Source: a bacterium (lineage in GTDB: Bacteria; AUK180). Taken from it: a stretch of 64,000 nucleotides of DNA. Below the pieces are notes generated by a model, which was not told the origin of the DNA, made no database searches, and was given only the letters and a program-made list of their open reading frames with translations. The stretch is taken from assembly GCA_023133295.1 (NCBI GenBank), contig JAGLWT010000090.1, positions 6,402 through 70,401 of the forward strand, given 5' to 3'. Positions 4,996 to 40,213 of the stretch are shown in pieces. The stretch's first letter is position 1; the number at the start of each line of letters is the position of its first letter. The position numbers and the translations under genes were made by a program.

Positions 4996-5151
4996 TCAAC
5001 TCTTTGCTTGGAACTTTTACATCGGGACAGACGAACTCCTGCGGAGTACGACATGTCCCATATCTTAATTCGCTCCGGCGTTCTATTCCTTTTATCGCGT
5101 GATTTTAATGGAAGTAACGAAATATTGATTTTTCGTTTACGGATGCGTTTC
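4996..5151 (-). repeat. inverted copy of the 3008-3162 repeat
   Basis: reverse-complement match to 3008-3162. Confidence 0.8.
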
Positions 5152-17596: not shown

Positions 17597-17665
17597 GCGA
17601 ACTCTGATTTAGCAACAAAATCAATTATATAAATTTGCATTGGTATAACAAAAGTATTACAATTA
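17597..17665 (+). promoter_or_regulatory. repeated sigma70 promoter module, copy 1
   Basis: TTGCAT(17635)-17 bp-TACAAT(17658); identical core at 19416 and 28816. Confidence 0.8.
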
Positions 17666-19377: not shown

Positions 19378-19490
19378 GCGAACTCTGATTCTGCAACAAA
19401 ATCAATTATAGAAATTTGCATTGGTATAACAAAAGTATTACAATAAATTAAAGGTTTCGATTACTATTTATAGGAGCTTTGTTTTGGGGA
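19378..19490 (+). promoter_or_regulatory. repeated promoter/RBS module, copy 2
   Basis: TTGCAT(19416)-17-TACAAT(19439) plus TAGGAGCTTTGTTTTGGGGA shared with 28780-28890. Confidence 0.8.
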
Positions 19491-19551
19491 TCATTGTGAC
19501 AAGGAGAAAAGATGTCTATCAAAATGGCGTGGAAAACAGGTACTATCCGAA

Positions 19552-21021: not shown

Positions 21022-21387
21022 ATGGTGACTTACCCAAAGAGAAATTCTAATAATCATATTTTGCCTACGGATAAAACTACGGGTAAAACTACGGATAAAA
21101 CTACGGGTAAATTTACCAAGAAAGGTTCCCAGAAAACTACCCAAGAAACTACCCAAGAAATTCCCCAGAAAATTAAAAATGAGGGATTAAATGAGGGATT
21201 AAAAACACTTCTAGAGTGCATCCGTGTAAACCCTGGTATTCAGGCCAAAGATATTTCTAAGTTATTGAACAATAGGCCAATTAAGACAATTGAAAGGCAG
21301 ATAAGTGATCTTAAGAATAGGCAATTAATCGAAAGAAAAGGAAGTCGAAAAACAGGTGGATACTATATAACGGACTTGGCGGATTAA
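21022..21387 (+). CDS. small wHTH protein preceded by several different tetrapeptide repeats
   Basis: TTDK/TTGK, TTQE, NEGL repeats then KTIERQISDLK..LIERKGSRKTGGY. Confidence 0.65.
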   Translation: MVTYPKRNSNNHILPTDKTTGKTTDKTTGKFTKKGSQKTTQETTQEIPQKIKNEGLNEGLKTLLECIRVNPGIQAKDISKLLNNRPIKTIERQISDLKNRQLIERKGSRKTGGYYITDLAD

Positions 21388-21470
21388 ATGGCGGATTAAA
21401 TGGCGGATAATAAAAAATGAATAGAGCAAGAACCCTCTCCATATTTCAGGTGAAAAGTGAAAGGTGAAAA

Positions 21471-21860
21471 GTGAAAAGGGGAACCGGACAGTCATATTCT
21501 ACATTAAAGGCTTGGGTGCTTGCCGATAAACTAGCTCACAAGATATATGATATAAGTTTTCAATTTCCACAGGAAGAAATATATGGACTTACATCACAAA
21601 TAACGCGTGCCGCATTATCCGTTCCGACAAATATTGTTGAGGGATATACCAGGATAAGCAGACCTGAGTTAAAACATTTTTGCAGTATTACGTTAGGTTC
21701 TCTTGGCGAAACAGGTTATTTACTTGACTTCTCATTAAAAAGAAAATACATATCTCAAACGGATTATACTGAGGTAAAAAATCTGCATCAGGAAACAGGA
21801 GCGTTACTCTGGAAATTCTACCATTCTCTTGAATCCAAAATCAGGAAGGAGAAAAAATGA
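21471..21860 (+). CDS. four-helix-bundle protein (23S rRNA IVP / bAvd-like family)
   Basis: FPQEEIYGLTSQITRAALSVPTNIVEG, GSLGETGY; flanked by heptamer repeats. Confidence 0.9.
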   Translation: MKRGTGQSYSTLKAWVLADKLAHKIYDISFQFPQEEIYGLTSQITRAALSVPTNIVEGYTRISRPELKHFCSITLGSLGETGYLLDFSLKRKYISQTDYTEVKNLHQETGALLWKFYHSLESKIRKEKK

Positions 21861-22062
21861 GTGCATTATTTCATCTCCCTTTTTCCATCTCCCTTTTCAG
21901 CAAAGCCTGCTTTGCTACCTTTTCCCATTTCCCTTATCAGCGAACTTGTTCGCAACCTTATCACTTATCAGCAAAGCTTGCTTTGCGACCGTTTCCCATT
22001 TCAGCGCAGCGACCTTTTCACGTTCCGCGTTGCATACATGGAACTACTAAGGAGTTAATGTA

Positions 22063-25000
22063 ATGAGTCTGCACACATATGTAAACAAGATTAAAAAGCT
22101 GTATAAAAGCGGAATCTCCACCGAACACAGCTATCGTGGTGATCTTCAGGTTCTATTGACCGATATGGTGCCGGGTATTATTGTTACCAATGAACCCAAA
22201 AGGCAGGAGTGCGGCGCACCGGATTATATCATCCAGAGAAAGCAGGTGCCACTCGGTTATATTGAGGCAAAGGACATTGGAATAGACCTCAACAAGATAG
22301 AGAAGTCCGAACAGCTCAAACGATACCTTAAATCTCTTGACAATCTCATTTTGACTGACTATCTGGATTTCCGGTTTTTCCGCTATGGTGAAAAGGTGGG
22401 AGAGATCCATCTAGGCGAAGTCGTTGACGGTAAGATATCGGTTTTCTACAACAATTTTGCATCTTTTGAAACCCATATCAAGGACTTCTGCAATTTTCAG
22501 GGACAGACGATAAAGTCATCCTCCAAGCTGGCTAAGATAATGGCGCACAAGGCAAAATTAATGGAAGAGATCCTCCACAATGTTGTTACTGAAGAAGGTG
22601 ACAACTCATTAAAGGATCAATTAAAGGCGTTCAGAAGAATTCTTATCCATGATCTGAAAGAAGAAAGCTTTGCTGACATATACGCTCAGACGATAGCGTA
22701 TGGAATGTTCGCCGCCCGTCTTCATGATACCACGCTGGAGGATTTTTCCAGACAGGAGGCAAGAGACCTCATCCCCAAGTCAAATCCATTTCTCAGAAAT
22801 CTCTTTGACTACATATCGGGAGCCAATCTTGATGACCGAATCGTCTGGATAGTGGATGAGCTGGCTAATATCTTTCAGGCGACCGACCTCAAAGAACTTC
22901 TGAAAGATTTCGGAAAGCAGACAGGGCAGTATGATCCGTTTCTGCATTTCTATGAGACCTTCCTTGCTGAATACAATCCGAAGCTCAGAAAATCCAGAGG
23001 AGTTTACTACACTCCTGAACCAGTAGTCGATTTCATAGTCCGTGCAGTTGATGATATTTTGGTCAGTGAGTTTGGTATTAAAAAAGGCCTTGCTGATACC
23101 TCCAAGGTTACGATCAAATATGATTCGGATGTTACCGACAAGAGAACAAAATCAAAAAAAATGCAGATTGAAAAAGAAGTCCACAAGGTCCAGATACTTG
23201 ACCCCGCCGCGGGAACGGGTACATTTCTGGCGAATGTGGTAAAGCATATCTACAAGAAATTTGAGGGACAGGAGGGCATCTGGTCTAATTATGTGGAGGA
23301 GCATCTTATACCTCGTCTCAACGGCTTTGAGATACTCATGGCTCCATATGCGATGTGCCATCTGAAGCTTGAAATGCTTTTGACAGAAACTGGATACAAG
23401 CCAAGTACAAAAGGGAGTGAAAAGCGTCTCAGGGTATTTCTCACGAACAGCTTGGAGAAAGCCCATCCAGATACAGGGACACTCTTTGCGTCCTGGCTTT
23501 CAAAGGAATCTGAAGACGCAAATTTTGTGAAACAGAACACTCCCGTCATGGTAATTCTCGGCAATCCACCATACAGCGGGGAAAGTTCCAACAAAGGCCA
23601 ATGGATCATGGATCTGATGGAGGATTATAAGAAAGAACCAGGTGGACAAGAGAAATTGAAAGAAAAGAATTCCAAATGGATCAATGATGACTATGTTAAG
23701 TTCTTAAGATATGGACAGCACTTCATCGAGAAGAATGGAAGTGGGATCCTTGCCTTCATTAATCCACATGGTTTTTTAGATAATCCGACATTCAGAGGAA
23801 TGCGGTGGCATCTACTTAAAACCTATGACAAGATTTATTCATTAAACCTACATGGCAACGCCAAGAAGAAGGAGAAATGTCCTGATGGCTCATATGATGA
23901 GAATGTCTTTGATATTCAACAAGGAGTCTCAATAAATCTGTTCGTTAAAACTGGAAAGAAGAAATCTAGTGATTTAGCTGAAGTATATTATTCAGACCTT
24001 TATGGTTTAAGAGATTACAAGTATAATTTTCTAATTGAGAATTCAAAGAATTCAGTTGATTATAAGAAACTACTGAACAAACCAAAAATGTATTTTATGG
24101 TACCAAGAGATTATGAAACGCAAGAATCTTATACTAAGGGTTTCTTAATTAACGAATTGTTTGTCAATAACAATGTAGGGATTGTTACTTCCAGAGACTC
24201 ATTTATTATATCGGAAGATGAGAAGACATTGGTAAAAAGAATAAAGGATTTTATTAATCTCGATCGTAATGAGATTTTACAGAAATATAAAATCAGTGAA
24301 AATAAAAGATGGAAAATTAATGAAGTGAAATCAATGATAAATGATATAGACATGAATAACATTGTAAATATTATGTACAGGCCATTTGATATTAAAAAGA
24401 TTTACTACAATGATTACTTTGTTGAAAGGACAAGAAGAGATATTATGTACCATATGGTTGCTGGAGAAAATCTGGGAGTCGTTTATAAATTGGGAAACTC
24501 AGAAGAAAAATCTGCTTCAGCGATGGTATCAAGAAATATTATAGATTTCAGAAGTTGGTCAAGACCAGGTATGCAAGGAGGCGATTCCATTGCTCCACTC
24601 TATCTTTATCATGAAAATCCTGAACAACTAACTATTTCGGGAGAATATGGAAGAAAACCCAATCTTGATATGGATATTATTCAGAAGATCGCTAATGGAT
24701 TGAAATTAACATTCACTAATGAGAAAGAGGATACAGTGGGGACATTTGCCCCAATCGATATCCTCGACTATATCTACGCTATGCTTCACAGCCCATCGTA
24801 CAGAGAGAAGTACAAGGAATTTCTCAAGATCGATTTCCCCAGAGTTCCTTATCCTAAGGATAAAAAAACATTCTGGAAGCTGGGTGAGAAGGGAGGTGAG
24901 CTCCGGCAGATACACCTTCTGGAATCCCCAAAAGTGGAGCAGTACATCACCAAATATCCAGTTGGCGGAGATAACATAATCACTCGAAAGCTCACCACGA

Positions 25001-25260
25001 AAAGCCCCGGATTTGAGTTTACGGATGAGAAAAAAGGCATCGGTCGTGTCTGGGTCAATGATGAACAGTATTTTGATGATGTCCCGCTCATTGCTTGGGA
25101 GTTTTACATCGGAGGATACCAACCTGCCCAGAAGTGGTTGAAGGACAGAAGAGGTCGCGCATTGACCTCAGACGACATCTTCCACTACCAAAAAATCATT
25201 GTTGCTCTCACCCAAACCCATAGGATTATGGGGGAGATAGATAAAATTGATAGAATTTAG
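22063..25260 (+). CDS. type IIG / type ISP-like restriction-modification enzyme (PD-(D/E)xK nuclease + N6-adenine MTase + LlaBIII-like C-terminal TRD)
   Basis: PDY..IEAK; GVYYTP; ILDPAAGTGTF; GNPPY; IDFPRVP; IGGYQPAQKWLKDR. Confidence 0.92.
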   Translation: MSLHTYVNKIKKLYKSGISTEHSYRGDLQVLLTDMVPGIIVTNEPKRQECGAPDYIIQRKQVPLGYIEAKDIGIDLNKIEKSEQLKRYLKSLDNLILTDYLDFRFFRYGEKVGEIHLGEVVDGKISVFYNNFASFETHIKDFCNFQGQTIKSSSKLAKIMAHKAKLMEEILHNVVTEEGDNSLKDQLKAFRRILIHDLKEESFADIYAQTIAYGMFAARLHDTTLEDFSRQEARDLIPKSNPFLRNLFDYISGANLDDRIVWIVDELANIFQATDLKELLKDFGKQTGQYDPFLHFYETFLAEYNPKLRKSRGVYYTPEPVVDFIVRAVDDILVSEFGIKKGLADTSKVTIKYDSDVTDKRTKSKKMQIEKEVHKVQILDPAAGTGTFLANVVKHIYKKFEGQEGIWSNYVEEHLIPRLNGFEILMAPYAMCHLKLEMLLTETGYKPSTKGSEKRLRVFLTNSLEKAHPDTGTLFASWLSKESEDANFVKQNTPVMVILGNPPYSGESSNKGQWIMDLMEDYKKEPGGQEKLKEKNSKWINDDYVKFLRYGQHFIEKNGSGILAFINPHGFLDNPTFRGMRWHLLKTYDKIYSLNLHGNAKKKEKCPDGSYDENVFDIQQGVSINLFVKTGKKKSSDLAEVYYSDLYGLRDYKYNFLIENSKNSVDYKKLLNKPKMYFMVPRDYETQESYTKGFLINELFVNNNVGIVTSRDSFIISEDEKTLVKRIKDFINLDRNEILQKYKISENKRWKINEVKSMINDIDMNNIVNIMYRPFDIKKIYYNDYFVERTRRDIMYHMVAGENLGVVYKLGNSEEKSASAMVSRNIIDFRSWSRPGMQGGDSIAPLYLYHENPEQLTISGEYGRKPNLDMDIIQKIANGLKLTFTNEKEDTVGTFAPIDILDYIYAMLHSPSYREKYKEFLKIDFPRVPYPKDKKTFWKLGEKGGELRQIHLLESPKVEQYITKYPVGGDNIITRKLTTKSPGFEFTDEKKGIGRVWVNDEQYFDDVPLIAWEFYIGGYQPAQKWLKDRRGRALTSDDIFHYQKIIVALTQTHRIMGEIDKIDRI

Positions 25261-25271
25261 GATATTTACAT

Positions 25272-26420
25272 ATGGATGATGATATAAAAGCATTGATTGA
25301 AATTCTCAAACATGAAGGGAGAGGTGACCTAGCGGAATTGCTCATTGAGTCATCTAGTAATGTTGATATGTCAGGTTCTTACGGCAACTACATGTATTCA
25401 GTCCTCAGTAAATTTGAGATATTCTCACCATACAAAAGATATAAAAAATTAAGGGCATTAAACGACAATGACAAAGAGTTTATTCTGAAATGCCTACTTG
25501 AAATTTACCCTCACAAGGAGCGAGAACCTGAAATAGTTGATATTATCTTCTATTTGAGCAAAGAACATACAGTTAAGGAGCATTCAGCAGGAGAAATAGT
25601 GGAAGTCGATCGCTTCATCATAGCTTTTCGAGAATATGTAAATACATTAATTAATATGGAGTATTTTGTCGGTGTTGGTTGGGTCGATATCGATGGTGAT
25701 CCCTATTTTGATACTTCAGAATTACACTCAGATATGACGATTGAACTTGGCATTGAGTCATTTGAAGATCTAAATTCAGTTGGTGTTCTATTTGACCTAA
25801 TCGAGTTCTACTATGGTGTCTTGAAGAAAGAATATAAGGATGGCGAAAAATCCCCCAGATATAAATATACAGTAAAAGTAAATAAACTTCTTAAAAAATT
25901 CAACCTTAAAGATATCATTAGTGAGGGAAAAATGAGTAGAAATGATAAAGAACTTCTTCAATGTTCTCTCAAAAAAAGCAAAGTGATTAATAATCCGAAA
26001 ATATCTAAGTGTTATGATCTGTTTATATGCCACGCATCAGAAGATAAAGAGACAATTGTGAAAGAACTCACTTCGGAATTAGAAAAACACGGGATTAAAT
26101 TCTGGATTGATGCTCTTAATATAAAATGGGGCGATGGAATAGTGAGTTATATTAATGATGGATTAGGAAAATCAAATTATGTTCTTGCAATTATTTCAAA
26201 GGCCTTTGTTGACAAGAACTGGCCAGAGAAGGAGTTAAATGCCGCTCTACATCTTGAAATTAGTTCTGGAAAAACGAAAGTATTGCCCTTGTTAGTAGGT
26301 GATATAGATATTAAGGCTAAGTATCCATTATTAGCTGAAAAATATTATAAGAAATGGGAAGATGGTCTTGAGATTATTATTAATGCTTTATTGATCAGAT
26401 TAGCAAAAGAGGAGGATTAA
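25272..26420 (+). CDS. TIR domain protein (C-terminal TIR, unknown N-terminal sensor)
   Basis: YDLFICHASEDK...FWID...WPEKELNAAL. Confidence 0.85.
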   Translation: MDDDIKALIEILKHEGRGDLAELLIESSSNVDMSGSYGNYMYSVLSKFEIFSPYKRYKKLRALNDNDKEFILKCLLEIYPHKEREPEIVDIIFYLSKEHTVKEHSAGEIVEVDRFIIAFREYVNTLINMEYFVGVGWVDIDGDPYFDTSELHSDMTIELGIESFEDLNSVGVLFDLIEFYYGVLKKEYKDGEKSPRYKYTVKVNKLLKKFNLKDIISEGKMSRNDKELLQCSLKKSKVINNPKISKCYDLFICHASEDKETIVKELTSELEKHGIKFWIDALNIKWGDGIVSYINDGLGKSNYVLAIISKAFVDKNWPEKELNAALHLEISSGKTKVLPLLVGDIDIKAKYPLLAEKYYKKWEDGLEIIINALLIRLAKEED

Positions 26421-26421
26421 T

Positions 26422-26940
26422 GTGAGTAAAAGTTATGACTACTTTGACATTTCTGAAGTTGATAAGGAAACGTGGGAAAAAATTTGCCCGAAAGGGACAT
26501 ATAGAATCTTAACAACAGCTGAGCTTCTTACGCAAAAGATATTACCAGAAGATCTAGTAAAAAAATTCAACAACGTTCTTGTGGTTGCTTCGGATATTCT
26601 TGAGATTAATACAACTTTCTACATGGTTAATGGAAATAGAGTGGATCAGAATGCCGGTCAAATCGATCAACAACCATTTGGCTTTGCCTTTGTAGATGAT
26701 CTTCCAAGCTTTAGTGGAATTCTGGTTCAACATGGTAATTGGAATGATAGAAGTACACCACCGCCTAATGATTTCTGGGAAAAGATAGCTCTTAGTGGAT
26801 TGTATGTTTCATTGCCGCTTAGTGAAATGCCAATATCCCTATCAGGATCTCTTTCTGATTTAGGCATTGAAAGTCAATATGATGCTTTTAGGGACTTATA
26901 TAGTAGATATCACAATGATATTAAATCAGATAATTCATAA
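26422..26940 (+). CDS. hypothetical protein coupled to the TIR gene
   Basis: GTG start 2 nt after the TIR stop, GAGGAGG RBS; 172 aa. Confidence 0.65.
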   Translation: MSKSYDYFDISEVDKETWEKICPKGTYRILTTAELLTQKILPEDLVKKFNNVLVVASDILEINTTFYMVNGNRVDQNAGQIDQQPFGFAFVDDLPSFSGILVQHGNWNDRSTPPPNDFWEKIALSGLYVSLPLSEMPISLSGSLSDLGIESQYDAFRDLYSRYHNDIKSDNS

Positions 26941-27029
26941 AAAGAGGATTTTCGGGAACGGTTGTTGTGTTTGCTGCAAAATAGATGCTGCTTAGGGACA
27001 GTGATAGGTTGAAATGAGACAAAAAAAAA

Positions 27030-27101
27030 CAAAAAATCATCGTTGCCTTCACCGAGACCCATCGGATAATGGGGGGGATTGATGAGATTAATATATTGTA
27101 G
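27030..27101 (+). repeat. copy of the MTase 3' tail
   Basis: encodes QKIIVAFTETHRIMGGIDEINIL* vs QKIIVALTQTHRIMGEIDKIDRI* of 22063-25260. Confidence 0.85.
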
Positions 27102-27118
27102 GATTACAGAGGTAAAAA

Positions 27119-27970
27119 ATGAATGAAAAAGATAAGAAGCTTACATTCTCAGAGAGAACCGGGAATAAACCAATAAATAAAGCCCTACAAATAGATTCTA
27201 TGAATGATGATTTACGAATGGCTTTGTGGAACATATTCTATATATTTTTCTTTGATGGGAATAAATCACGCAGCATTAGTTCCAAATATAAGATGTTCTT
27301 TTCAGTGTTATGGATTAACTATTTCAAATTGCCATATGATCAATTTCCTGTAAAGGTAAATGAAATGAGGGATTTCATTAAATCACATATTCTCACGCAA
27401 TGGAAATGGTATGAGGTCTATGATTTTATTGAGAGAATCCCCAAAGTAAAAGATATTCCAGTTAATCCAAATGAATTTAAAGACACATGCAACAAAATAT
27501 TGAATAGGGAACATTCAGCCTATAGGTTTATTGACGAACATTTAACTCCGATAGTTGAAAACTGTGAAATTGAAGAAATAGAAAAGGCTTTGAAATCCTC
27601 ATTTTCTTCGGTTCAAACACATGTGAGAAGAGCCTTAGAGCTTCTGTCAGACAAGAACAATCCTGATTATCGAAACTCGATAAAAGAATCTATAAGTGCA
27701 GTGGAAGCACTTTGTAGAATAATTGCTGAAGATAATAGCGCTACGTTGTCCGATGCGATCAAAACAATGAAAAAGAAGAAGAAAATGCATTCTCAATTTG
27801 AGCAGGCAATTCTAAATCTTTATAATTACTCAAGCGATAATGCAGGGATAAGACATTCACTAACTGAATCCACAGAAGAGGTAACTTTGGTGGAAGCCCG
27901 TTTTGTTTTAGTAACTGTTTCAGCGTTTATCAATTATATTACTTGGATTTTCAAGAATGAAATTGGATGA
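27119..27970 (+). CDS. AbiJ-N-terminal-like (NTD4) / HEPN-like putative defence protein
   Basis: FSERTG..LQIDSMNDDLRMALWN; WYEVYDFIE; NPDYRNSIKESISAVE; GIRH motif. Confidence 0.7.
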   Translation: MNEKDKKLTFSERTGNKPINKALQIDSMNDDLRMALWNIFYIFFFDGNKSRSISSKYKMFFSVLWINYFKLPYDQFPVKVNEMRDFIKSHILTQWKWYEVYDFIERIPKVKDIPVNPNEFKDTCNKILNREHSAYRFIDEHLTPIVENCEIEEIEKALKSSFSSVQTHVRRALELLSDKNNPDYRNSIKESISAVEALCRIIAEDNSATLSDAIKTMKKKKKMHSQFEQAILNLYNYSSDNAGIRHSLTESTEEVTLVEARFVLVTVSAFINYITWIFKNEIG

Positions 27971-28068
27971 GCTTCACAAATATAATGCAATTTGATAATA
28001 CTAACAAGCAGATAGTATACCTTAAGGAGAAGAGATGGATTCTAGGTATTTAGAGCATCAGGGAATTC

Positions 28069-28276
28069 GGGGACGGTAGTTGCGAAAGTTGCAAAATTAC
28101 TGGCATTCTTTAAATAAATAATTGTGTATAGGGCTGAAAGGGGAGAGCAGGTTGTATCAATCCGCTAAGAATACCGGATTTGATTTCAGTTTATTGTGTG
28201 GTATAATAAGCCAAATGAAGAAGGGAGATATTGGAAAATGAAAAATGAAAATGCAACAAATGCAACAACCGTCCCC
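28069..28276 (+). mobile_element. GGGGACGGT-ended non-autonomous element with internal promoter
   Basis: inverted ends ggggacggtagttgc / gcaacaaccgtcccc; interior matches 12920-13055. Confidence 0.75.
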
Positions 28277-28305
28277 GGAATTCTCCAAGTGAGGGCTGTT
28301 TAGAA

Positions 28306-28737
28306 GTGGAGAAAAAAGTATCTTTCCTTGTTAAGAAAATATTTAGGATCGTAATTTTGATTATTTCACCGCTAATCCCTTGGTTCTATATAAAAATGAT
28401 TTTTTATTTCGAAGGCTCTCCATGGGGCCCGCTTTGCCTTCTCCATCTGTTTTATGATTATACCAAACCGTTTGTTTGGGAGCGAATCTTCTTCGGCACT
28501 GTTGGATTATTGCTTGGTTTAGTATTTGGAATCAATGCTTGTAAGGTGCTTGTGGATTTTAAGAATAAGGAAAAACTCTACTTCAAAGCTCTCAGATTGT
28601 TCTTTATCATATTAGGGTTAGTATATCTAGCGATTCTTGTTTTCTCAATGGTTGATATGACAGTTATTCCAATATGGTATTCTGAGAAATCATATCTTTT
28701 TAGAGTAGCCTTCTTTTTTTCAGAATATACTATGTGA
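28306..28737 (+). CDS. hypothetical membrane protein
   Basis: 3 TM segments; start context GAGGGCTGTTTAGAAGTGGAGAAAAAAGTA shared with the 16203 gene. Confidence 0.7.
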   Translation: MEKKVSFLVKKIFRIVILIISPLIPWFYIKMIFYFEGSPWGPLCLLHLFYDYTKPFVWERIFFGTVGLLLGLVFGINACKVLVDFKNKEKLYFKALRLFFIILGLVYLAILVFSMVDMTVIPIWYSEKSYLFRVAFFFSEYTM

Positions 28738-28779
28738 AAAATCCTGACAAGCAAGGTAGTTTGTCTTCACTATTAAATT

Positions 28780-28890
28780 GAACTTTGATTTTGCAACAAA
28801 ATCAATCAAAGAAATTTGCATTGGTATAACAAAAGTATTACAATAAATTAGAGCTTTCGAGTACGATTTATAGGAGCTTTGTTTTGGGGA
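28780..28890 (+). promoter_or_regulatory. repeated promoter/RBS module, copy 3
   Basis: TTGCAT(28816)-17-TACAAT(28839); AGGAG 7 nt before TTG 28884. Confidence 0.8.
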
Positions 28891-29693
28891 TGGATAATGT
28901 CAGTTATAATGATCTGCTTTTAGCATATTATGATATTATGGATATCCTTACTGAAGAGTATGTAGAAATTGATTCATTTAATACCGATAACGAAATTCAA
29001 ATCCATGCTAGAGTATTTGTAAAGAGCATAATTACAAAACTCCTGACTATTTCAAAGCTTCAGCCGAGCGTAGCAACTATCGATGGAAAGGGGCTATGGG
29101 ATTATTTTTCTCTTGGTATTTTGGCGCGAGCCGTTGTTGAGGAGTATTATCTTTTCTGGTATTTGTTTTTAGATTCTAAAGACGAAGAGAAATTAGCATT
29201 TCGATTCAGATATTATAGATTTCGAGGAGAAAGTAAGAGGTTAGAACTTTTTAAGTTGAATCCTAATCTATCTGGAAGGATACAAGAGAAGGACTTGGCA
29301 TTACAACAAGAAGAAAGGGAATTGAAGCAATCAAAATATTACAAGGAAACAAATAAAGAATTTAGTATAAGTGCTATCAGGAAAGCGTATCTTAGAAATC
29401 CAGTTTTCGAAAAATCCCTTAAGAAAAGGTTTGAGAACAATATGGAAATGTCACATATGCTTCTTTCTCAGTACAGTCATAACACGGGTTTAGCGTATTC
29501 GCAGATGAAGAATTTCAAGAATGAGGATAATGATCATAATAGGAAGATGTTTGCTGCGATAATGGTACACGTAATTGAATTTCTGCCGCCATTTTCTATG
29601 TATATTATAGAGTTGTTTCCCGAAATAAAAAAATACACTAAAAAGCTTGAAAAATTCTTTGAAAAACATTCAAAGCAAATGGGTGCTGAGTGA
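28884..29693 (+). CDS. hypothetical helical protein, DUF5677/HEPN-like
   Basis: ILARAVVE and LSQYSH motifs reminiscent of DUF5677; weak call. Confidence 0.55.
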   Translation: MGMDNVSYNDLLLAYYDIMDILTEEYVEIDSFNTDNEIQIHARVFVKSIITKLLTISKLQPSVATIDGKGLWDYFSLGILARAVVEEYYLFWYLFLDSKDEEKLAFRFRYYRFRGESKRLELFKLNPNLSGRIQEKDLALQQEERELKQSKYYKETNKEFSISAIRKAYLRNPVFEKSLKKRFENNMEMSHMLLSQYSHNTGLAYSQMKNFKNEDNDHNRKMFAAIMVHVIEFLPPFSMYIIELFPEIKKYTKKLEKFFEKHSKQMGAE

Positions 29694-29748
29694 TGATATG
29701 CACTTCAAAATTTCTCGTTAATTACTTGAAATATTCTGAGGAGAAGAA

Positions 29749-29901
29749 ATGTCAATCCATTCGTATATTAATGAAGTAAAAGGCAAAGGTACAATACTCA
29801 ATATCCTACACGACGACATCTTCCACTACCAAAAAATCATCGTTGCCCTCACCGAAACCCACCGGATTATGGGGGAGATAAAAGGGATTATTATTTTATA
29901 A
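29749..29901 (+). pseudogene. internally deleted 50-aa miniature of the type IIG/ISP MTase
   Basis: GAGGAG RBS; MSIHSYINEVK (cf. MSLHTYVNKIK) fused in frame to DDIFHYQKIIVALTETHRIMGEI. Confidence 0.8.
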
Positions 29902-29918
29902 ATTATGGAGGAGTGTAG

Positions 29919-31364
29919 ATGAAGAGATTTGCAATTTTACTTGGGTCTGAAGAATATAAAGATTTCTTGATGACGAAGTATTGTCATAATGATGTGAATA
30001 ACCTTAAAGAAACTCTGATAACTTGTTGTGACTATTTAGAACAAGACGTTTATAGCAGACTTCTTACTCCTGAAGATGAAATTCATCCCCTTGAAATTCT
30101 AAAAGAAGTTGAGAAGCTGCTTGAAAAATCTCAAGAGGGTGATTCAATTCTGTTTTACTATTCTGGTCATGGAGCATTAATTGAAAATGAGGGATATCTA
30201 ATTTTGTCGACTACTAGTCTCACAAATATACAACAAACTTCTATTCCAATACGGGATATAAACGAAGTTCTAAAGAAGGATGGCAGGTTGTGCGTTAGAA
30301 TATTTGATGCATGTCATTCAGGAATCGACATTAGGGATAGCACACTCAATCCAACAGGTTTTATCAGGGAAATACTATCATCAACAAATGAAGGATGGGC
30401 AACACTAGCTGCTTGCAAGGAAAATGAAGGAAGCTATCCAGATGATTCTATTGAAAGTGGAGTGTTTTCTTACTACCTGTGCGAAGCAATAAGAGAGTAT
30501 AAGAATGGAGATGAAATATATCCCGAGGAATTGAAGATCAAAATTTGTAGAGGTGTAGAAAAGTGGCTAGAGGATAAACCTTATATTCAAACTCCGACTC
30601 TAAATTCTTCGATCTCAGGAAACGTTCCAATTGCAGTACGAAAGGTAATAGTAGAGGATACACAAGAAAATGGTTCTGAAATAGAAGATCCACAGAATGA
30701 TGAATTAATTAGTTCAACCTTAGAAGTATTACATGAATATGCGAAGCGTGGAATCACTGCAAATAAGGAGAATTATGAACAACAAATCAATCTAATGAAA
30801 AGCATTTTCAATGACACTAAAAAAGAGAATGCATTATTAACTGACGCTGAAGTAATTGTATCAGATAGTGAGTCCATTCCAGCGTATCTGAAAAGACTCA
30901 TTGTGCGAAAATTTGATGACCTTGGGTTGAAATCATCATTTGATATTCGTATAGTTCGAATATACGAGGAGGAGAATCCGATATTTAAGAGGATTATGGG
31001 TGGATTATCTACACGAAAAATAGAAGAGATTAAGTATATCATCAAACAGCCATATGACTATCCAGATAGCTTTATACAAGTAAAGGTGAAGCAACAAGGC
31101 TTCATTCCAAGTGGCTTGATTTTCTGCTTCATTATACCCCTGCAAATGAAAATATGGATAATTGCAGGATATTCTATGGGAGATAGAGATATCTGGAGTG
31201 ACAGAAGTAATGAAATTATTTCTGCTAATAAATTGGATTATAAATGTAGTGATAGAGAAACAGTTAAAGCTTTGGCTGATTTGCTAATTAGGAAATTCAA
31301 GGACAAGTATCTTCAGAAGTGTAAGCAAAGGGAGAAGTATTTAGAAAATAAGGAGGATAAATAG
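29919..31364 (+). CDS. caspase-like (peptidase C14) protein with unknown C-terminal domain
   Basis: FYYSGHG and FDACHSG catalytic His/Cys motifs. Confidence 0.9.
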   Translation: MKRFAILLGSEEYKDFLMTKYCHNDVNNLKETLITCCDYLEQDVYSRLLTPEDEIHPLEILKEVEKLLEKSQEGDSILFYYSGHGALIENEGYLILSTTSLTNIQQTSIPIRDINEVLKKDGRLCVRIFDACHSGIDIRDSTLNPTGFIREILSSTNEGWATLAACKENEGSYPDDSIESGVFSYYLCEAIREYKNGDEIYPEELKIKICRGVEKWLEDKPYIQTPTLNSSISGNVPIAVRKVIVEDTQENGSEIEDPQNDELISSTLEVLHEYAKRGITANKENYEQQINLMKSIFNDTKKENALLTDAEVIVSDSESIPAYLKRLIVRKFDDLGLKSSFDIRIVRIYEEENPIFKRIMGGLSTRKIEEIKYIIKQPYDYPDSFIQVKVKQQGFIPSGLIFCFIIPLQMKIWIIAGYSMGDRDIWSDRSNEIISANKLDYKCSDRETVKALADLLIRKFKDKYLQKCKQREKYLENKEDK

Positions 31365-31500
31365 ATTGGAAGCAGGATATTGAATATGGGAATTTTGAAA
31401 ATGAAAATCAAATCATACCAAAAAATCATTGTATATTGGAAAGAAAAAGATATAGTGGAGATAGATGTAATTGATGTTTTATGATTATATGGAGGATTAA

Positions 31501-32100
31501 ATGAGTAATGCTGAATTTTATCATTATATTCATCATGGTTCTGAGGAAAGAAATCTGGAATATAAGTGTTCAATGAATTGGGATTCGGAGGAAATAAAAA
31601 GTAAAATCACAAAAACATGTATAGCGATGAGTAATCTTCCAGATGGCGGGGTCATTGTATTGGGAGTCAAGGAAATTGAAAAAGATGTATTTTATCCAGA
31701 AGGAATGTTAGAACAAGATTACAATTCATTTAATCAAGATAATGTGCAGCATTGGGTAAATAATCATGCAGATCCTTATGTGTTACTCACAGTAAAAAAA
31801 ATAGAGGTAGAAAATCTTAAGTATATTGTTATCCAGATCAAAGAATTTGATTTGTATCCGGTAATATGCAAGAAAGATAGTGTTACAATTAATGAAGGTG
31901 AAATTTACTGTAGACCAAAACGAAAGAATGAATCTGTTAAAATACCAAGTCAAAATGAAATGCGTGAAATACTTGAATTAGGTGTTAAGAATGCTGTAAG
32001 AAAAAACTTGTATCAATGTCATAATCTCATAAAAGAAGTGAATAAGGAATTGGATACACAAGATAATAGTAATTTTGAGAAGGAAATTGAGGATTTATAA
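31501..32100 (+). CDS. AlbA_2 (Schlafen-like) domain protein
   Basis: EERNLEYK, IAMSNLPDGGVIVLGVKE. Confidence 0.82.
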   Translation: MSNAEFYHYIHHGSEERNLEYKCSMNWDSEEIKSKITKTCIAMSNLPDGGVIVLGVKEIEKDVFYPEGMLEQDYNSFNQDNVQHWVNNHADPYVLLTVKKIEVENLKYIVIQIKEFDLYPVICKKDSVTINEGEIYCRPKRKNESVKIPSQNEMREILELGVKNAVRKNLYQCHNLIKEVNKELDTQDNSNFEKEIEDL

Positions 32101-32101
32101 A

Positions 32102-32815
32102 ATGGTAGATAACAACAAGCTTGTTAATGTAATTAAAGGTAATCCATACTGGAGAGTAATAATTCGTCCTCTGAAATATAATGCAGATCTTTTAAGTTTT
32201 AATAGGGCGAAAAAGATTATTATTGATTCTGCTATTAATCTTCGAGGGTGGCAATACCCCGCCTTTCACGAACATGAGATAATCAACAAAGAGAATTATA
32301 TAGAAGGAAAGATTAATTGGAGCTCTTTTAATGAATATTGGAGGTTTTATCAAAGTGGTCAATTTATACACTTATTTAATTTACAGGAGAATCTAAGACT
32401 TAAAAATGAAGGGAAGGTGCCCTCATTTTTGAGTCCCACTCCAAAAGAAGAACCTTTGTCTTATATAAGCATAATCTCTACAATATATCTATTCGTGGAG
32501 ATATTTGAGTTCGCAATCAGAATAACTGAAGAGGATATTTATAATTCTGGAGTATATATGAGTGTACAATTGAATAAATGTGATAAAATGAGATTGTTTT
32601 CATATGAGTCCTCGAGGATATTCTTCAAATCGTATATGTGTGAATCAGAAAAGATAAATATCGAAATTTCTTTAGGTAAAAATATAATATTAACAGAAGG
32701 CAGAGAAATATGCCTTGAAAAAGTACAGAGATTTTTTGAATATTTTCAATGGGGTAATTTCCCAGAGGACTTAATTAGAGAAGAACAGAAAAAATTATTG
32801 GAGAGGAGAATCTAA
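32102..32815 (+). CDS. hypothetical protein, partner of the AlbA_2 gene
   Basis: ATG 2 nt after the upstream stop; LRGWQYP, EYWRFYQSGQFIH. Confidence 0.7.
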   Translation: MVDNNKLVNVIKGNPYWRVIIRPLKYNADLLSFNRAKKIIIDSAINLRGWQYPAFHEHEIINKENYIEGKINWSSFNEYWRFYQSGQFIHLFNLQENLRLKNEGKVPSFLSPTPKEEPLSYISIISTIYLFVEIFEFAIRITEEDIYNSGVYMSVQLNKCDKMRLFSYESSRIFFKSYMCESEKINIEISLGKNIILTEGREICLEKVQRFFEYFQWGNFPEDLIREEQKKLLERRI

Positions 32816-32820
32816 ACATT

Positions 32821-33166
32821 ATACACGATATATATTACTCAAATTTTGTTGTTGGAATAGAAAAAATAAACAAGAAGGGAAAGAAGAGAATAAAGGCATT
32901 CAGTGTATGGGATTCAGATTTACCTAGAAAAAATATTTTATTTATTAAAGGAATTGATCCTGAGTATTTCAAATACATTGCTGAACACAATATGGCCAAT
33001 TTAGATAATGAAAAAAGAAATTATGCAGCAACAAATATGCGCATTTCTTATATGCACGGCCTTGAAACACTCTTTTCCTTATTGTTTGCATCTTTACAGT
33101 CTCCTGATTGTATTCACGGATGGTTGATGAAATACAATTTAGGAGATTTGAGAGAATTAATCCTCA
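32821..33166 (+). pseudogene. truncated hypothetical gene cut by a GGGACGGT element end
   Basis: open frame FSVWDSDL..GIDPEYF..HGLETLFSLLFA runs into repeat DNA (gggaattcagggaattcagggacggtcg) at ~33167. Confidence 0.5.
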
Positions 33167-33425
33167 CGGGAATTCAGGGAATTCAGGGACGGTCGTTGCA
33201 TTTGTTGCAAAAGACACGCTTCGCAGTTGCCCAGTGGACCCAGTATCCTAAAGGAAAATCGTTCTGATAAATAGTTCCGAATCACATCTTCAATACAAAC
33301 ATATCACAATAGTTATAATGAAAGCCACAGAATTAACCTTACTATCAAAATAGATATTCGAATATAAGCATACATAGTGTTCTGGCATTATACTTGATAA
33401 TAAGAGTAATAGATAGGAGGTGAAT

Positions 33426-33902
33426 ATGGCTGTAAAAGTATTCATTAGTTATTCTTCAAAGGATGGAAGGCGAGTGAAACCGATAAAAGATGTATTGGAA
33501 AAGTATCCTGGACTGAAGATATTTTTTGCTGATGATTCATTTTTTCCGGGCGATAATATTCCTGAACGAATAAAAGCAGAGATTGAGAAATGTGATTATC
33601 TCTTCCTATTTCACAGTAAAAATTCATTGAAATCGCAATGGGTTCAAAACGAGATTGGAATAGCGTATGGGAAAAGCAAGACGGTAGTACCAATTCTACT
33701 GGACAAAGCTAAACCAGAAGGAGTAATAAAAACTGTAACAAATTACTTGGATCTAACAGATAAGAAGAAATTTGATATTGCAGTGAATGAACTACTTGAA
33801 GTTGTTAGAAAGAAAGAGAATGAGAAGAATTTGTCCACTGGCCTTTTAATAATTAGTGTGATAATAATAATTGGACTGATTATCTGGGGGAACTCCAAAT
33901 AG
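33426..33902 (+). CDS. TIR domain protein with C-terminal TM helix
   Basis: KVFISYSSKD, SQWVQNEIG; hydrophobic C-terminus; AGGAGG RBS. Confidence 0.88.
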   Translation: MAVKVFISYSSKDGRRVKPIKDVLEKYPGLKIFFADDSFFPGDNIPERIKAEIEKCDYLFLFHSKNSLKSQWVQNEIGIAYGKSKTVVPILLDKAKPEGVIKTVTNYLDLTDKKKFDIAVNELLEVVRKKENEKNLSTGLLIISVIIIIGLIIWGNSK

Positions 33903-34185: not shown

Positions 34186-34338
34186 ATGCCGAAAACAGGT
34201 GAAAAACCAGGGATAGGTAGGTATAGATGTACCAAATGCGGACAAACAGTAGTCCTGGATGATAGGAGTGATACATTACCTCCTTGTCCAAAATGTGCGA
34301 ACACAAACTTTCGAAGATTAATTATGAGGAAAAGATGA
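34186..34338 (+). CDS. small zinc-ribbon (YjzC-like) protein, absent from the ORF track
   Basis: AAAGGAG RBS; MPKTGEKPGIGRYRCTKCG..TLPPCPKC; stop overlaps next ATG (ATGA). Confidence 0.8.
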   Translation: MPKTGEKPGIGRYRCTKCGQTVVLDDRSDTLPPCPKCANTNFRRLIMRKR

Positions 34339-34754
34339 GTCATAAAACTATCACAATTAATTTTGACGGTTACTGGAGAGATGTGAACAAAAACAGCATT
34401 CCAAATAAATCAGGAATTTATTGTGTCTATGAGTGTACCCATAATAGAGATAAAGAAAATATAACTATTCATAAATTAATCTACATAGGCGAAGCTGGGA
34501 AAGTTAGGGACAGGATTTTAGGTCATGAGAAAAGAGAGAAATGGTTACAATATGTTGGCAAAGGAAATGTATTATGCTTCAGTTTTGGGGATATTGACAA
34601 TGAAGCAGATAGGGAGCGAGCTGAGGCTGCTGTGATAAATAAGGAAAAACCGCCTGTAAATGAAGAATATAAGAATAATTTTCCCTTTGATTCGACTACT
34701 ATAAAATTAACAGGGGAGATTACGTTACTGCATAATAATTATACAGTAGAATAG
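34335..34754 (+). CDS. GIY-YIG nuclease family protein
   Basis: SGIYCVY...LIYIGEA..VRDRI..H, AEAA, PPVN. Confidence 0.85.
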   Translation: MSHKTITINFDGYWRDVNKNSIPNKSGIYCVYECTHNRDKENITIHKLIYIGEAGKVRDRILGHEKREKWLQYVGKGNVLCFSFGDIDNEADRERAEAAVINKEKPPVNEEYKNNFPFDSTTIKLTGEITLLHNNYTVE

Positions 34755-34810
34755 AGCGATGGAATAGAGTTAAATAATAAAATGCATACAAGAATGATGG
34801 GGAGATGATA

Positions 34811-35167
34811 ATGTCTGAATGGGTATTTGATAAAAATGGACAACCTATTATAATTCATGATGATGATTGCTTTAGAGATAGTAACGGGCAAGTAATTGCG
34901 TGGATCTCTCGCAACAATGTTTACGACTTGAATGGCATGCATGTTGGCTGGTTTGAGGATGGAATTCTTCTAGACTCTCAAAACCAAGTTTTAGGATTCT
35001 TATATAATGCGAGCGGGCATCTTCCTTCACGACCTGGGCTTACCGGAACGCCTGGTACACCTGGTTTTGCCGGTAGACCTGGTCGCCCAGGATTTGGAGG
35101 TACACCTGGCCGTCCAGGTCGCGGTGGTTGGTCAAATCAAAATCTATCAACATACTTCAAGGATTGA
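34811..35167 (+). CDS. small protein resembling the 4-fold beta-flower family, with Pro/Gly-rich tail
   Basis: repeated D.NG..I.W units then RPG/TPG repeats. Confidence 0.6.
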   Translation: MSEWVFDKNGQPIIIHDDDCFRDSNGQVIAWISRNNVYDLNGMHVGWFEDGILLDSQNQVLGFLYNASGHLPSRPGLTGTPGTPGFAGRPGRPGFGGTPGRPGRGGWSNQNLSTYFKD

Positions 35168-35435
35168 TTAGGGGATTGTGTGGCCGGTCGTTGCGAAAAT
35201 AGGGGACGGTCGTTGCATTTGTTGCAAAAGACACACTTCGCAGTGTCCTAGGAGCCCAGGAGTAAGACAACTTGTCACTGGATATGGGATCATATACGAT
35301 AATGACAGAGTATAACGGGATTCCCGACTTGGTCTAGAAAACTTAACTTTCCCAAAAATGTAAAAGTAGGATTACACGAAATAGATGATTTTCAGTCTTT
35401 GTAGAAGGGGACTTTTCGCTTTGGGATTTAGTACA

Positions 35436-39850: not shown

Positions 39851-40213
39851 CTATTCGGACAAATTGATTAAGAAGTGTTCTATCTTATCCGAGACCTTGC
39901 AGGTCAGCGGCAGGAATTGAAGCCCGATTGTGATATTGCCGTCATGTGAATGCAGCCATCTGACGATGCCCTTCACTGTTACGATCTGCTCATTGTGGAG
40001 GCTCACCTCCAGGCTGATGCCGTAATTGAGCTGAACCGGGATATCATCATAGATCTCAAGAAGCATTCCACTCATCGAAAGATTAAGCGTCTTCCCCATA
40101 CCTTGATATATCCCGTTTCCGTTCTGATCATAAATTTCAACATTAGTCATGTTCAACGACTCGAGGCGTTTGTCTCTTCTTAAAAGTTTAAAATCATCCA
40201 TATAATCTGTCAT
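39851..40213 (-). CDS. PilZ domain protein
   Basis: RRDKR and NLSMSG c-di-GMP-binding motifs; GLQF. Confidence 0.85.
   Translation of the reverse strand: MTDYMDDFKLLRRDKRLESLNMTNVEIYDQNGNGIYQGMGKTLNLSMSGMLLEIYDDIPVQLNYGISLEVSLHNEQIVTVKGIVRWLHSHDGNITIGLQFLPLTCKVSDKIEHFLINLSE

Follow-up and report, generated by a model that had tools for sequence, protein, structure and literature searches.

Leftover ends of a type IIG restriction-modification gene in an integrase-free defence island: probable footprints of repeated gene turnover

Described arrays and hotspots

Integron arrays consist of ordered single-gene cassettes, in which newcomers push the older ones back. Displacement of Rhs C-termini with orphan tips was reportedly described by Jackson et al. 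2009, and Nobusato et al. 2000 are said to have described insertion with long target duplication for restriction-modification (RM) genes. The window presented here (the whole 64-kb stretch of DNA that was analysed) differs from integrons in having neither IntI nor attC-like sites, its repeats being coding remnants. An integron or an integrase-borne island was considered and rejected, as no tyrosine or serine recombinase family was detected in the 58 scanned ORFs of the window and the cargo ends have no common motif.

As in displacement arrays, the window carries an intact gene and, behind it on the same strand, orphan 3′ fragments resembling its end that are each followed by a separate gene. 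The orphans appear to come from other horizontally acquired functional alleles, as indicated by an excess of synonymous differences and by GC content (0.36 in the island vs 0.44 in its flanks). Gene content differs between close relatives and the anchors are conserved, as seen in a same-genus genome (G002) and in contigs of run X3. One close parallel is the T6SS effector-immunity arrays of Vibrio cholerae, in which each new module is inserted after a conserved anchor lying upstream, so that the former 3′ end moves downstream together with its partner gene and orphan arrays arise. No integrase takes part, and besides ordinary homologous replacement the authors proposed homology-facilitated illegitimate recombination (Kirchberger et al., 2017, PMC5361080). 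Secretion-system or effector DNA serves as the anchor there, with immunity genes matching the lost effector as passengers, whereas in the window the conserved end of an RM gene is the anchor and unrelated defence-type genes that stand alone are the passengers. Orphan tips of Rhs/CdiA likewise follow a full-length gene as truncated 3′ fragments with their own downstream gene, and recombination between repeats can reportedly re-couple an orphan (Koskiniemi et al., 2014, PMC3967940). The variable part of those systems is the protein's own C-terminal toxin tip, while in the window it is the conserved end that recurs, and variation lies in a distinct gene.

Concerning long target duplication, integrase-free inserts at RM loci are flanked by direct repeats of >30 bp derived from the target, often one that overlaps a gene 3′ end (Furuta, Abe and Kobayashi, 2010, PMC2853133). 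The window resembles this in the absence of mobility genes from the insert. Repeats of 69-75 nt do flank its cargo, but they are only 80-93% alike with mainly synonymous differences, and no relative was found that combines an intact gene with an empty slot. RM genes are the insert and the empty site is known in the described cases, while in the window the inserts are other defence genes and the target is the end of the RM gene. Finally, in the immigration control region of E. coli, a chromosomal island flanked by conserved genes, defence content turns over through the flanking homology with no mobilising enzyme present locally (PMC12707154). The anchors of such hotspots are the flanking core genes, whereas the window has extra internal anchors, namely gene-end relics and a 112-nt promoter-like repeat.

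The type IIG gene, its relics and the genes behind them

The RM gene is located at 22063..25260 (+ strand, like all tails, relics and cargo genes below) and encodes a 1065 aa protein with matches to PF18135, PF02384, PF20473 and PF07669 and to the PADLOC model PDLC03610 REase_MTase_IIG (1186 bits, the model covering residues 3-515 onwards). DPAAGTGTF and NPPY, which we take to be methylase motifs I and IV, are seen in its translation as one chain. A PD...EAK nuclease-type motif lies N-terminally at residues ~53-70, with no separate nuclease match in Pfam, and the C-terminal target-recognition domain is PF18135 Type_ISP_C (residues 698-1057, E-value = 2.8e-80). The gene is read as an intact type IIG gene and is predicted to encode a single-chain nuclease-methylase. 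Type ISP (LlaGI-like) membership, which calls for a helicase-like ATPase motor between nuclease and methylase, was rejected, as no helicase or ATPase family was found in the 1065-aa protein and only the C-terminal domain is in common. The island itself sits between core genes that are collinear in G002, and no integrase or transposase families were found in the 58 ORFs scanned across the 64-kb window.

A sequence-only reading of this DNA had claimed that the tail of the RM gene is reiterated at 27030-27101, 29812-29901 and, in degenerate form, at 31416-31484, and this was borne out by blastn, a codon pattern, a profile HMM (copies 1-3) and a 17-mer (copy 4). Copy 1 (25171..25260; DDIFHYQKIIVALTQTHRIMGEIDKIDRI and stop) consists of the 29 final codons of the intact gene with their stop codon and is presumably the working end of that gene. 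With window positions 24961-25300 as query against the whole window, blastn retrieved copy 3 at 29812-29880 (92.8% of 69 nt, E-value = 3e-24), copy 2 at 27030-27104 (80% of 75 nt, E-value = 7e-14) and copy 4 as two collinear matches of 17/17 nt (31416-31432, E-value = 0.005) and 21/25 nt (31451-31475, E-value = 0.06) with a 6-nt indel. Likeness to the working tail is thus not graded by distance (copy 3 93%, copy 2 80%), and the copies differ pairwise by 7-20%. The pattern QKIIV....[EQ]T.RIMG matched three times in the window vs 0 in 100 shuffles. A tail HMM of 25 columns, built from 118 tails of other organisms and searched against the 89,188 six-frame peptides of the genome, recovered copies 3, 1 and 2 (E-value = 3e-14, 2e-13 and 1e-8; next match 2.2) and missed copy 4. 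The latter was accepted because it shares with copy 1 the 17-mer TACCAAAAAATCATTGT, which occurs exactly twice genome-wide, because window positions 31371-31432 match the left portion of an evident tail in the same-genus genome at 83% identity, and because it stands before a gene. Beyond this locus, no further copies of the tail were found in the 163 contigs of the genome.

Copy 2 (27030..27101; QKIIVAFTETHRIMGGIDEINIL and stop) is an orphan relic with no in-frame start and an A9 run directly upstream. Relic 3 (29749..29901) is a 50-codon mini-ORF composed of about 10 type IIG head codons (MSIHSYINEV), a short linker and copy 3 (29812..29901), and relic 4 (31386..31484) is a 32-codon mini-ORF with the decayed copy 4 (31416-31484) and a scrambled middle. 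Among 35,060 non-self ORF starts, that of the intact RM gene matches the relic 3 head best (rank 1), and the head agrees with the family consensus of 65 N-termini; copy 3 is still in frame with the opening codons of a type IIG gene. Since this head is present, a whole RM gene would once have stood there and been hollowed out by deletion, and copy 3 would therefore not have been made by tail-anchored insertion.

New genes start 11, 17, 17 and 16 nt after the stops of copies 1-4, in line with the 11-17 nt given earlier. Behind copy 1 lie a TIR-domain protein of 382 aa (25272..26420; PF13676, E-value = 1e-21; PDC-S66, RT-TIR and ThsB models) and a 172 aa protein with no family match (26422..26940). 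Relic 2 is followed by an AbiJ_NTD4/PDC-S32 protein of 283 aa (27119..27970; PF18863, E-value = 1.5e-27; PDLC04997, E-value = 4e-97), a 143-aa predicted membrane ORF (28306..28737) with a 78% identical paralogue on contig C18, and a 269 aa protein (28884..29693) whose weak DUF5677 match is under the curated cut-off. The cargo of relic 3 is a caspase-like protease of 481 aa (29919..31364; PF00656, Peptidase_C14, E-value = 7e-18; PDLC02987) and that of relic 4 an AlbA_2 (Schlafen-type) protein of 199 aa (31501..32100; PF04326, E-value = 1.6e-14) with a 246 aa protein without family match (32075..32815). The TIR, AbiJ-like and caspase-like identities proposed from the sequence thus hold, but the supposed AlbA_2 pair is one AlbA_2 gene and the 246-aa protein. 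The 112-nt promoter-like repeat (28780..28891, + strand) is also found 5′ of both large AlbA_2 genes (17599-17663 and 19380-19491), with 92.9% identity over 112 nt between copies, and is present in the congener too; it is a second kind of seam.

Divergence, the congener and distribution

In the 15-codon tail core of three window copies, pS was 0.29-0.50 vs a pN of 0.03-0.06, and the three pairs summed to 12 synonymous vs 4 non-synonymous changes (binomial p 1e-5). This synonymous excess argues that the tails derive from working alleles. Copies 2-4 are orphaned ends of other, once-working alleles of the same RM gene family. Between the window and the congener, pS in relic 3 is 0.22 for the head and 0.77 for the tail core, and 0.19 in the flanking core genes. 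In the tail core, 8 of ~10.3 synonymous sites are changed (p 5e-5 vs baseline, Fisher p 0.011 vs head), these divergence tests spanning 15-21 codons only. The fourfold synonymous jump within the relic points to a probable recombination breakpoint.

G002 has an island at the same place, without the RM gene. Within it, only an AlbA_2 gene, relic 3 (87% identity over 125 nt) and relic 4 (83% over 64 nt) match the window. After relic 3 the congener has a Ser/Thr kinase and a DUF4236 gene vs the caspase of the window, and after relic 4 PIN_12, an OLD-type ATPase and a UvrD-type helicase vs AlbA_2. Homology stops at ...RIMG and restarts ≤10 nt from the cargo stop. The relics are among the very few island stretches common to the sister species, with different genes lying between and behind them. 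In another sample, run X3 gave a 10.6-kb contig with relic 3 near one end and a remainder unlike the window, as well as a 321-nt contig fusing the 112-nt repeat straight to relic 3. A tail-to-tail deletion joint was not found in the assembled contigs.

A second type IIG paralogue of the same genome has three orphan tails in three other defence islands, with a different gene after each. Elsewhere, at least 7 of 49 metagenome loci have orphan or extra tails, and in an unbiased set of 401 Bacteroidota genomes 9 carry tail-only relics, at 11 sites. Head-only relics amount to about half of that (6 sites, three of them weak, in 4/401 genomes), and retention is therefore not tail-specific. Tail arrays are rare (1/80 homologue loci; 3 of the 60 Bacteroidota genomes with a tail). 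Genome G210 shows the order RM gene, GmrSD-like genes, AbiE-like genes, displaced tail. Head-plus-tail relics at L150 and in G371, where a chloride-channel gene and a LysR gene flank the relic, together with the head of relic 3, indicate that plain internal deletion also yields relics. The slot directly behind this RM gene family is variable and tightly packed: the next ORF starts -41 to +32 nt from the homologue end in 29/80 loci, and the families found there include DUF1016/YhcG, RelA_SpoT, AbiJ-like, AlbA_2, NYN, PLD and RhuM. The expectation that relatives of the cargo sit directly behind full-length methyltransferases elsewhere was confirmed for the AbiJ-like (L106, L045), TIR (L039) and AlbA_2 (L100) genes, but not for the caspase (0 of 58 downstream ORFs).

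Turnover of the island and its alternatives

With a probability of roughly 70%, we regard the repeats as footprints of repeated turnover, by sequential displacement and deletion, of type IIG genes and the defence genes riding with them in an integrase-free chromosomal island. Incoming DNA would have the form of an RM gene end plus passenger gene(s), with recombination anchored in the conserved gene end; its far end could be joined illegitimately or in the next relic, and the older gene end with its passenger would be shifted downstream. RM gene bodies would also be lost through internal deletion. Against this reading weigh the unordered likeness of the relics to the working tail, the rarity of arrays, the relics explained by deletion alone, the head-only relics, and the fact that neither a recombination event nor a tail-to-tail joint was seen directly in the assembled contigs. 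Relics may persist as homology for the next exchange and, as a weaker reason, may preserve the stop codon and the ribosome-binding-site context (11-17 nt) used by the passenger; such a translational role cannot be general, given that relic 2 lacks an in-frame start and relic 4 is scrambled in its middle. The data suggest that leftover RM gene ends could act as seams for adding or exchanging defence genes without a dedicated recombinase. The earlier proposal of the tail as a homology anchor for stacked cargo is thus partly supported, by the RM-allele origin, the conserved seams with differing cargo, the divergence jump in relic 3 and the relatives of three cargo families behind full-length homologues, but copy 3 itself is best read as a deletion product.

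That three RM genes came independently with their neighbours and rotted, the tails being neutral debris with no role in exchange, is unlikely. Decay of this kind would suit the relic in G371, which has no defence cargo, the head-only relics in 4/401 genomes and the state of relics 2 and 4. Nevertheless, each of the three relics consists of the final 24-30 codons, with no other piece of the 3.2-kb gene left, relics 3 and 4 were kept in the congener with all surroundings replaced, and synonymous divergence rises fourfold within relic 3.

We consider it rather improbable that the mini-ORFs have been retained for a function of their own, either as leader ORFs passing ribosomes on to the cargo or as small proteins mimicking the C-terminal helix of the enzyme. 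In its favour, five of the six orphan tails in the genome sit within ORFs that have an in-frame ATG and end just ahead of the following gene. The reading frame of relic 3 is intact in window and congener alike and is preceded by the Shine-Dalgarno-like GAGGAG, and two paralogue relics have a common 390-nt platform with a TTGACT-N17-TATACT site, homology stopping at the cargo start. Against this, the relic 3 head looks neutral (3 synonymous vs 5 non-synonymous changes), the relic 4 peptide is not conserved between the two species, relic 2 cannot be started, and a sigma-70 consensus scan did no better than shuffles (68 found vs 59 expected).

Site-specific cassettes, with the tail containing an attachment site for an integrase encoded elsewhere in the manner of integrons or 3′-end-targeting islands, are very improbable. 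The arrangement is ordered with the same short sequence before each cargo, and left edges coincide across unrelated loci at DDI/NADI (window, L120) and in the W.F.IGGYQ region (L115, L123, L126, L150, G024); yet the left edges of the window copies differ (residues ~1037, 1043 and 1041; 1009-1019 elsewhere), the many synonymous differences leave no identical core, no integrase, transposase or IntI-type family was found in the scanned ORFs of the window, and the D1 repeat found at cargo 3′ ends, which have no common motif, is dispersed genome-wide with 49 matches. An assembly artefact of mis-joined strain variants, named at the outset as what would overturn the claim, can practically be dismissed even though the genome was assembled from a metagenome into 163 contigs and sister samples contain related strains, as contigs of a second assembler, probably from the source run itself, span copies 1+2 (21379-28095) and 3+4 (28821-33215) with 0 differences, the copies differ from each other by 7-20% and the congener has the same two relics.

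Beyond the turnover of this island, a bolder version is possible, though we hold it as tentative: type IIG gene ends may be a portable, recombinase-free docking and expression platform, in which defence genes would move from genome to genome as modules of a gene end plus passenger that dock by RecA-type recombination into any resident copy or relic and the mini-ORFs would be selected for feeding ribosomes to the passenger. If this is true, unknown defence genes could generally be searched for by way of orphan restriction-gene ends, and docking of this kind would be a main route of defence-island growth.

The restriction-modification gene and its four tails

A single-chain restriction-modification enzyme of 1065 aa is encoded intact at 22063-25260 (hereafter the RM gene). 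It contains the Type_ISP_C (E-value = 2.8e-80), N6_Mtase, MmeI_Mtase and Eco57I domains and matches the PADLOC type IIG model PDLC03610 with 1186 bits. Blastn located three more copies of its final 24-30 codons downstream, all on the same strand. Counting the gene's own end as copy 1, copy 2 is established at 27030-27104 (80% of 75 nt, E-value = 7e-14), copy 3 at 29812-29880 (92.8% of 69 nt, E-value = 3e-24) and copy 4 at 31416-31484, with a weak match of 17/17 nt plus 21/25 nt. The codon pattern of the tail core matched three times in the window and never in 100 shuffles. A tail HMM trained on 118 sequences from other organisms found copies 3, 1 and 2 among the 89,188 peptides of the genome (next match, E-value = 2.2), while copy 4 was not recovered by this protein test. 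The 17-mer of copy 4 occurs only twice in the 3.1-Mb genome, and the copy corresponds, in decayed form, to a clear tail of the sister species. Beyond these, the genome search returned no further copy.

From the stop of each tail to the start of the next gene there are 11, 17, 17 and 16 nt for copies 1 to 4, respectively. Copy 1 is followed by a TIR protein and then an uncharacterized 172-aa protein, copy 2 by an AbiJ_NTD4/PDC-S32 protein and then a membrane ORF and a weak DUF5677 protein, copy 3 by a caspase-like protease, and copy 4 by an AlbA_2 protein and then an uncharacterized 246-aa protein. These data confirm the sequence-only reading in that the end of the RM gene is reiterated and each copy heads a defence-like gene. 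An assembly artefact is contradicted by contigs of a second assembler, which cover copies 1 and 2 and copies 3 and 4 with no differences, the run in question being probably the source of the genome. The constant spacing of 11-17 nt suggests that the orphan copies (relics) also serve the translation of their passengers, and so does the location of five of the six orphan tails within ORFs that have a start codon; however, relic 2, which has no in-frame start, and the neutral-looking head of relic 3 speak against such a role.

No tail-to-tail deletion joints were seen in the assembled (Logan) contigs. Two other joints were recorded, one in run X1 linking 28098 to 25232 across 19 other letters (depth 46.8) and one in run X2 from 26364 to 32210 (side 24); stretches without cover in runs X2 and X3 were not counted as absence. 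The D1 intergenic repeat (core GGGACGGTCGTTGCATTTGTTGCAAAAGACAC; 26943-26981, 28058-28096, 33174-33234 and 35169-35251, also 35191) was rejected as a cassette boundary because it is dispersed genome-wide (49 blastn hits). It is present in many contigs and on both strands, and the second-assembler contigs break there. Another dispersed repeat of ~100 nt (…CTTCCTGTCAACTCTTTGCTTGGAACTTTTACATCGGGACAGACGAAC…) is located at 5004-5025 and in more than 15 other contigs. A dispersed repeat of this length also accounts for 26 nt of the RM gene (25087-25112) that match over 15 contigs, an overlap due to chance. An Rfam search of the window yielded no families, including at the ~100-nt repeat, and a window scan for sigma-70 promoters and terminators performed no better than on shuffles.

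Origin of the relics and comparison with a sister species

The tails lie in an island from ~16 to 39.8 kb with a GC content of 0.36, versus 0.44 on either side. Its left neighbours are a TRAP transporter and a PEMT-like gene (15205-15903), and its right neighbours are a PilZ gene (39854-40213), radical-SAM and dcw-cluster genes. No integrase or transposase family was detected among the 58 window ORFs scanned, and at this level of annotation the site is shown to be one without a recombinase. The island also holds genes that no tail precedes, encoding a ThsB-like short TIR protein (33420-33902), an uncharacterized 156-aa protein (34284-34754) and a beta-flower protein whose tail is collagen-like (34805-35167). 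Coding repeats of 13 nt and 12 nt (GGQK and TTGK/TTDK runs) stand in tandem within and after the second AlbA_2 gene, and imperfect ~35-nt repeats are found directly upstream of the RM gene (20736-20811, 21065-21112 and 21885-22008).

Concerning the origin of the relics, the 15-codon core of three window copies differs by 12 synonymous and 4 non-synonymous changes (p = 1e-5), where about a quarter of changes would be synonymous if there were no selection. The copies therefore diverged while they were part of functioning genes, and at the codon level the relics are shown to derive from other working alleles of the RM family. The same excess (12 vs 4) rules out in-place duplicates that went to decay. 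As regards this descent from working alleles, copy 3 lies within a 50-codon ORF (29749-29901) whose first residues, MSIHSYINEV, ranked first of 35,060 non-self ORF starts against the start of the RM gene (score 38, runner-up 30). They also agree with the N-terminal consensus M[TS]I..YI..[IV] of 65 family members. DNA-level alignment of this head with the start of the RM gene gave no match and blastp-short missed it; the relation was seen only by ungapped BLOSUM scoring of all ORF starts together with the family consensus. By this scoring relic 3 is a former whole gene minus ~1000 internal codons, and an origin by internal deletion is shown, at the sequence level, for one relic. Two head-plus-tail relics independent of relic 3 were identified, in metagenome locus L150 and in the Bacteroidota genome G371, the latter flanked by a chloride-channel gene and a LysR gene, with no defence cargo.

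The search of the own phylum covered nine genomes. In a congener, G002, both flanks are collinear and an island occupies the same position, with the RM gene absent. The two islands match in three things only: one large AlbA_2 gene (86%), the mini-ORF of relic 3 (87% of 125 nt, with an identical head-tail junction) and the left portion of relic 4 (83% of 64 nt). Behind relic 3, the congener carries a Ser/Thr kinase and a DUF4236 protein and the window a caspase; behind relic 4, it carries a PIN_12 protein, an OLD-type ATPase and a UvrD-type helicase and the window AlbA_2. Homology ends at …RIMG within the tail and restarts at most ~10 nt from the stop of the final cargo gene. This comparison shows that relics are kept across species while their cargo turns over. 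A 10.6-kb contig from a different sample of the study, which includes cold-seep samples, has relic 3 near one end and otherwise differs from the window.

A promoter-like repeat of 112 nt (TTTGCA-N18-TACAAT) is located at 17599-17663, 19380-19491 and 28780-28891, upstream of both large AlbA_2 genes and the DUF5677-like gene, and the congener has one too. A 321-nt contig of run X3 joins this repeat straight to relic 3. The repeat appears to be a recombination seam of a second type.

Between the two species, two flanking core genes show a synonymous divergence of 0.19 and the head and linker of relic 3 (21 codons) one of 0.22, a value that rises to 0.77 in the tail core of relic 3 (15 codons), where 8 of ~10.3 sites are changed (p = 5e-5 vs the baseline; Fisher p = 0.011 vs the head). 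A jump in divergence inside relic 3 is thus shown by these codon counts. Few codons are involved, and they point to a head that was vertically inherited (21 codons) and to a tail core that, like the cargo behind it, is of other origin in one of the species, with the crossover within the 18 identical bases separating the two. This jump is the most direct backing for tails acting as homology anchors.

Relics of a paralogue and of the wider family

The same genome has a type IIG paralogue on contig C92 (27957-31148), 43% identical to the RM enzyme and with a distinct tail type. Its orphan tails were found at C92:20311-20382, 7.6 kb downstream of the paralogue, at C54:26883-26963 and at C40:51196-51282 (L166-L168). 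Each forms a short ORF that has an ATG and stands immediately ahead of a different gene. All three loci are islands of defence genes, among them Shedu, RelA_SpoT, AAA_15 with PIN_8, SIR2, TIR/SEFIR, OLD-type and reverse-transcriptase genes. A 390-nt platform with a good sigma-70-like site (TTGACT-N17-TATACT) is common to the relics of C92 and C54, whose similarity stops at the following gene's ribosome-binding site. A leader of ~50 nt ending in GGAGG precedes several defence-type genes (AAA_15/AAA_21 ATPases) as a short shared module linker (C54:30434-30487, C92:23722-23770, C40:56107-56158).

The family is widespread, with 583 relatives confirmed in species-representative genomes; the best 80 of them are mostly full-length genes from many phyla. 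What lies directly behind the gene varies and is closely spaced: the next ORF begins at -41 to +32 nt in 29 of these 80 loci, and the families in this slot include DUF1016/YhcG, RelA_SpoT, AbiJ_NTD4 plus DUF7014, AlbA_2 plus HATPase_c_4, NYN, PLD, RhuM and DUF4209. The expectation that the cargo would recur directly behind full-length methyltransferases held for relatives of the AbiJ-like protein (L106, 35% over 279 aa), the TIR protein (L039) and AlbA_2 (L100), but not for the caspase, of which no relative was found among the downstream ORFs of the homologue loci. Reiterated tails are uncommon, since only one of the 80 loci has a second copy.

Among 49 metagenome loci gathered by the codon pattern of the tail core, at least seven have orphan or extra tails (L115, L120, L155, L123, L126, L150 and L152). 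In L115, two relics stand ahead of a DUF1016/YhcG gene and a DUF559 gene, with housekeeping genes around. L120 and L155 have the same three-tail arrangement and are collinear, an apparent difference in copy number being a frameshift effect in a poor contig. There, three tails lie within 520 nt (L120, oriented 293-807) ahead of a lipoprotein-like gene, as a tandem of cargo-less "spacer plus tail" units whose 150-nt spacer contains a strong hairpin (CCCCCCTTCGTACGAAGGGGGG).

An unbiased check was made on an even sample of 401 Bacteroidota genomes, in which queries of 60 aa returned 72 rows from 60 genomes for the tail and 46 rows from 40 genomes for the head. By our own classing, a relic is an open frame of at most 110 aa whose partner end is absent at gene distance. 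Eleven tail-only sites (9 genomes), six head-only sites (4 genomes; three weak, all from one genome) and one head-plus-tail relic were obtained; both gene ends therefore leave relics. Tail arrays occurred in 3 of the 60 genomes with tail rows. G210 presents the full pattern, with the RM gene followed by GmrSD-like genes, DUF6577 and AbiEii genes and a displaced tail. L170 (G254:C166, 3195-3973) has an intact homologue with a displaced tail 140 nt behind it and, after that tail, an IS200-type transposase gene. In the Bacteroidota sample, tail relics are about twice as frequent as head relics, and only tails form arrays. The phenomenon is one of conserved gene ends generally and not a special property of the tail.

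Proposed mechanism and implications

We propose that modules of a gene end plus its passenger would come in via recombination anchored at the conserved end, the incoming module displacing the older end and its passenger. Exchange from array to array could use two relics as arms, or a relic and the 112-nt repeat, and the bodies of RM genes would disappear by deletion. The first step may have been an illegitimate joining or a long target duplication. The original suggestion that tails are homology anchors through which cargo was stacked is partly supported, by the breakpoint in relic 3 and by cargo turnover at the relics, but it does not cover every copy, as at least one relic is the deletion scar of a complete gene. 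The closest described processes include the sequential displacement of T6SS effector-immunity modules (PMC5361080), the orphan tips of Rhs/CdiA (PMC3967940), insertion with long target duplication at RM loci (PMC2853133) and integrase-free replacement at hotspots, of which the E. coli immigration control region is one (PMC12707154). No published account of orphan restriction-gene ends bracketing defence genes was found among the titles and abstracts listed in literature searches.

As a practical handle, any gene that starts directly behind an orphan tail becomes a candidate for a new defence function. Cases in point are the window's 172-aa and 246-aa proteins, those of 217 aa and 339 aa on contigs C92 and C54, and those of 361 aa and 581 aa in metagenome loci L120 and L123. 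To the question of how defence islands gain and swap genes with no mobile-element machinery in sight, this locus offers, for one widespread family of enzymes, an answer that is concrete and can be tested: the conserved end of a restriction gene, and sometimes its start, would stay behind as a seam at which passengers can be added, displaced and exchanged.
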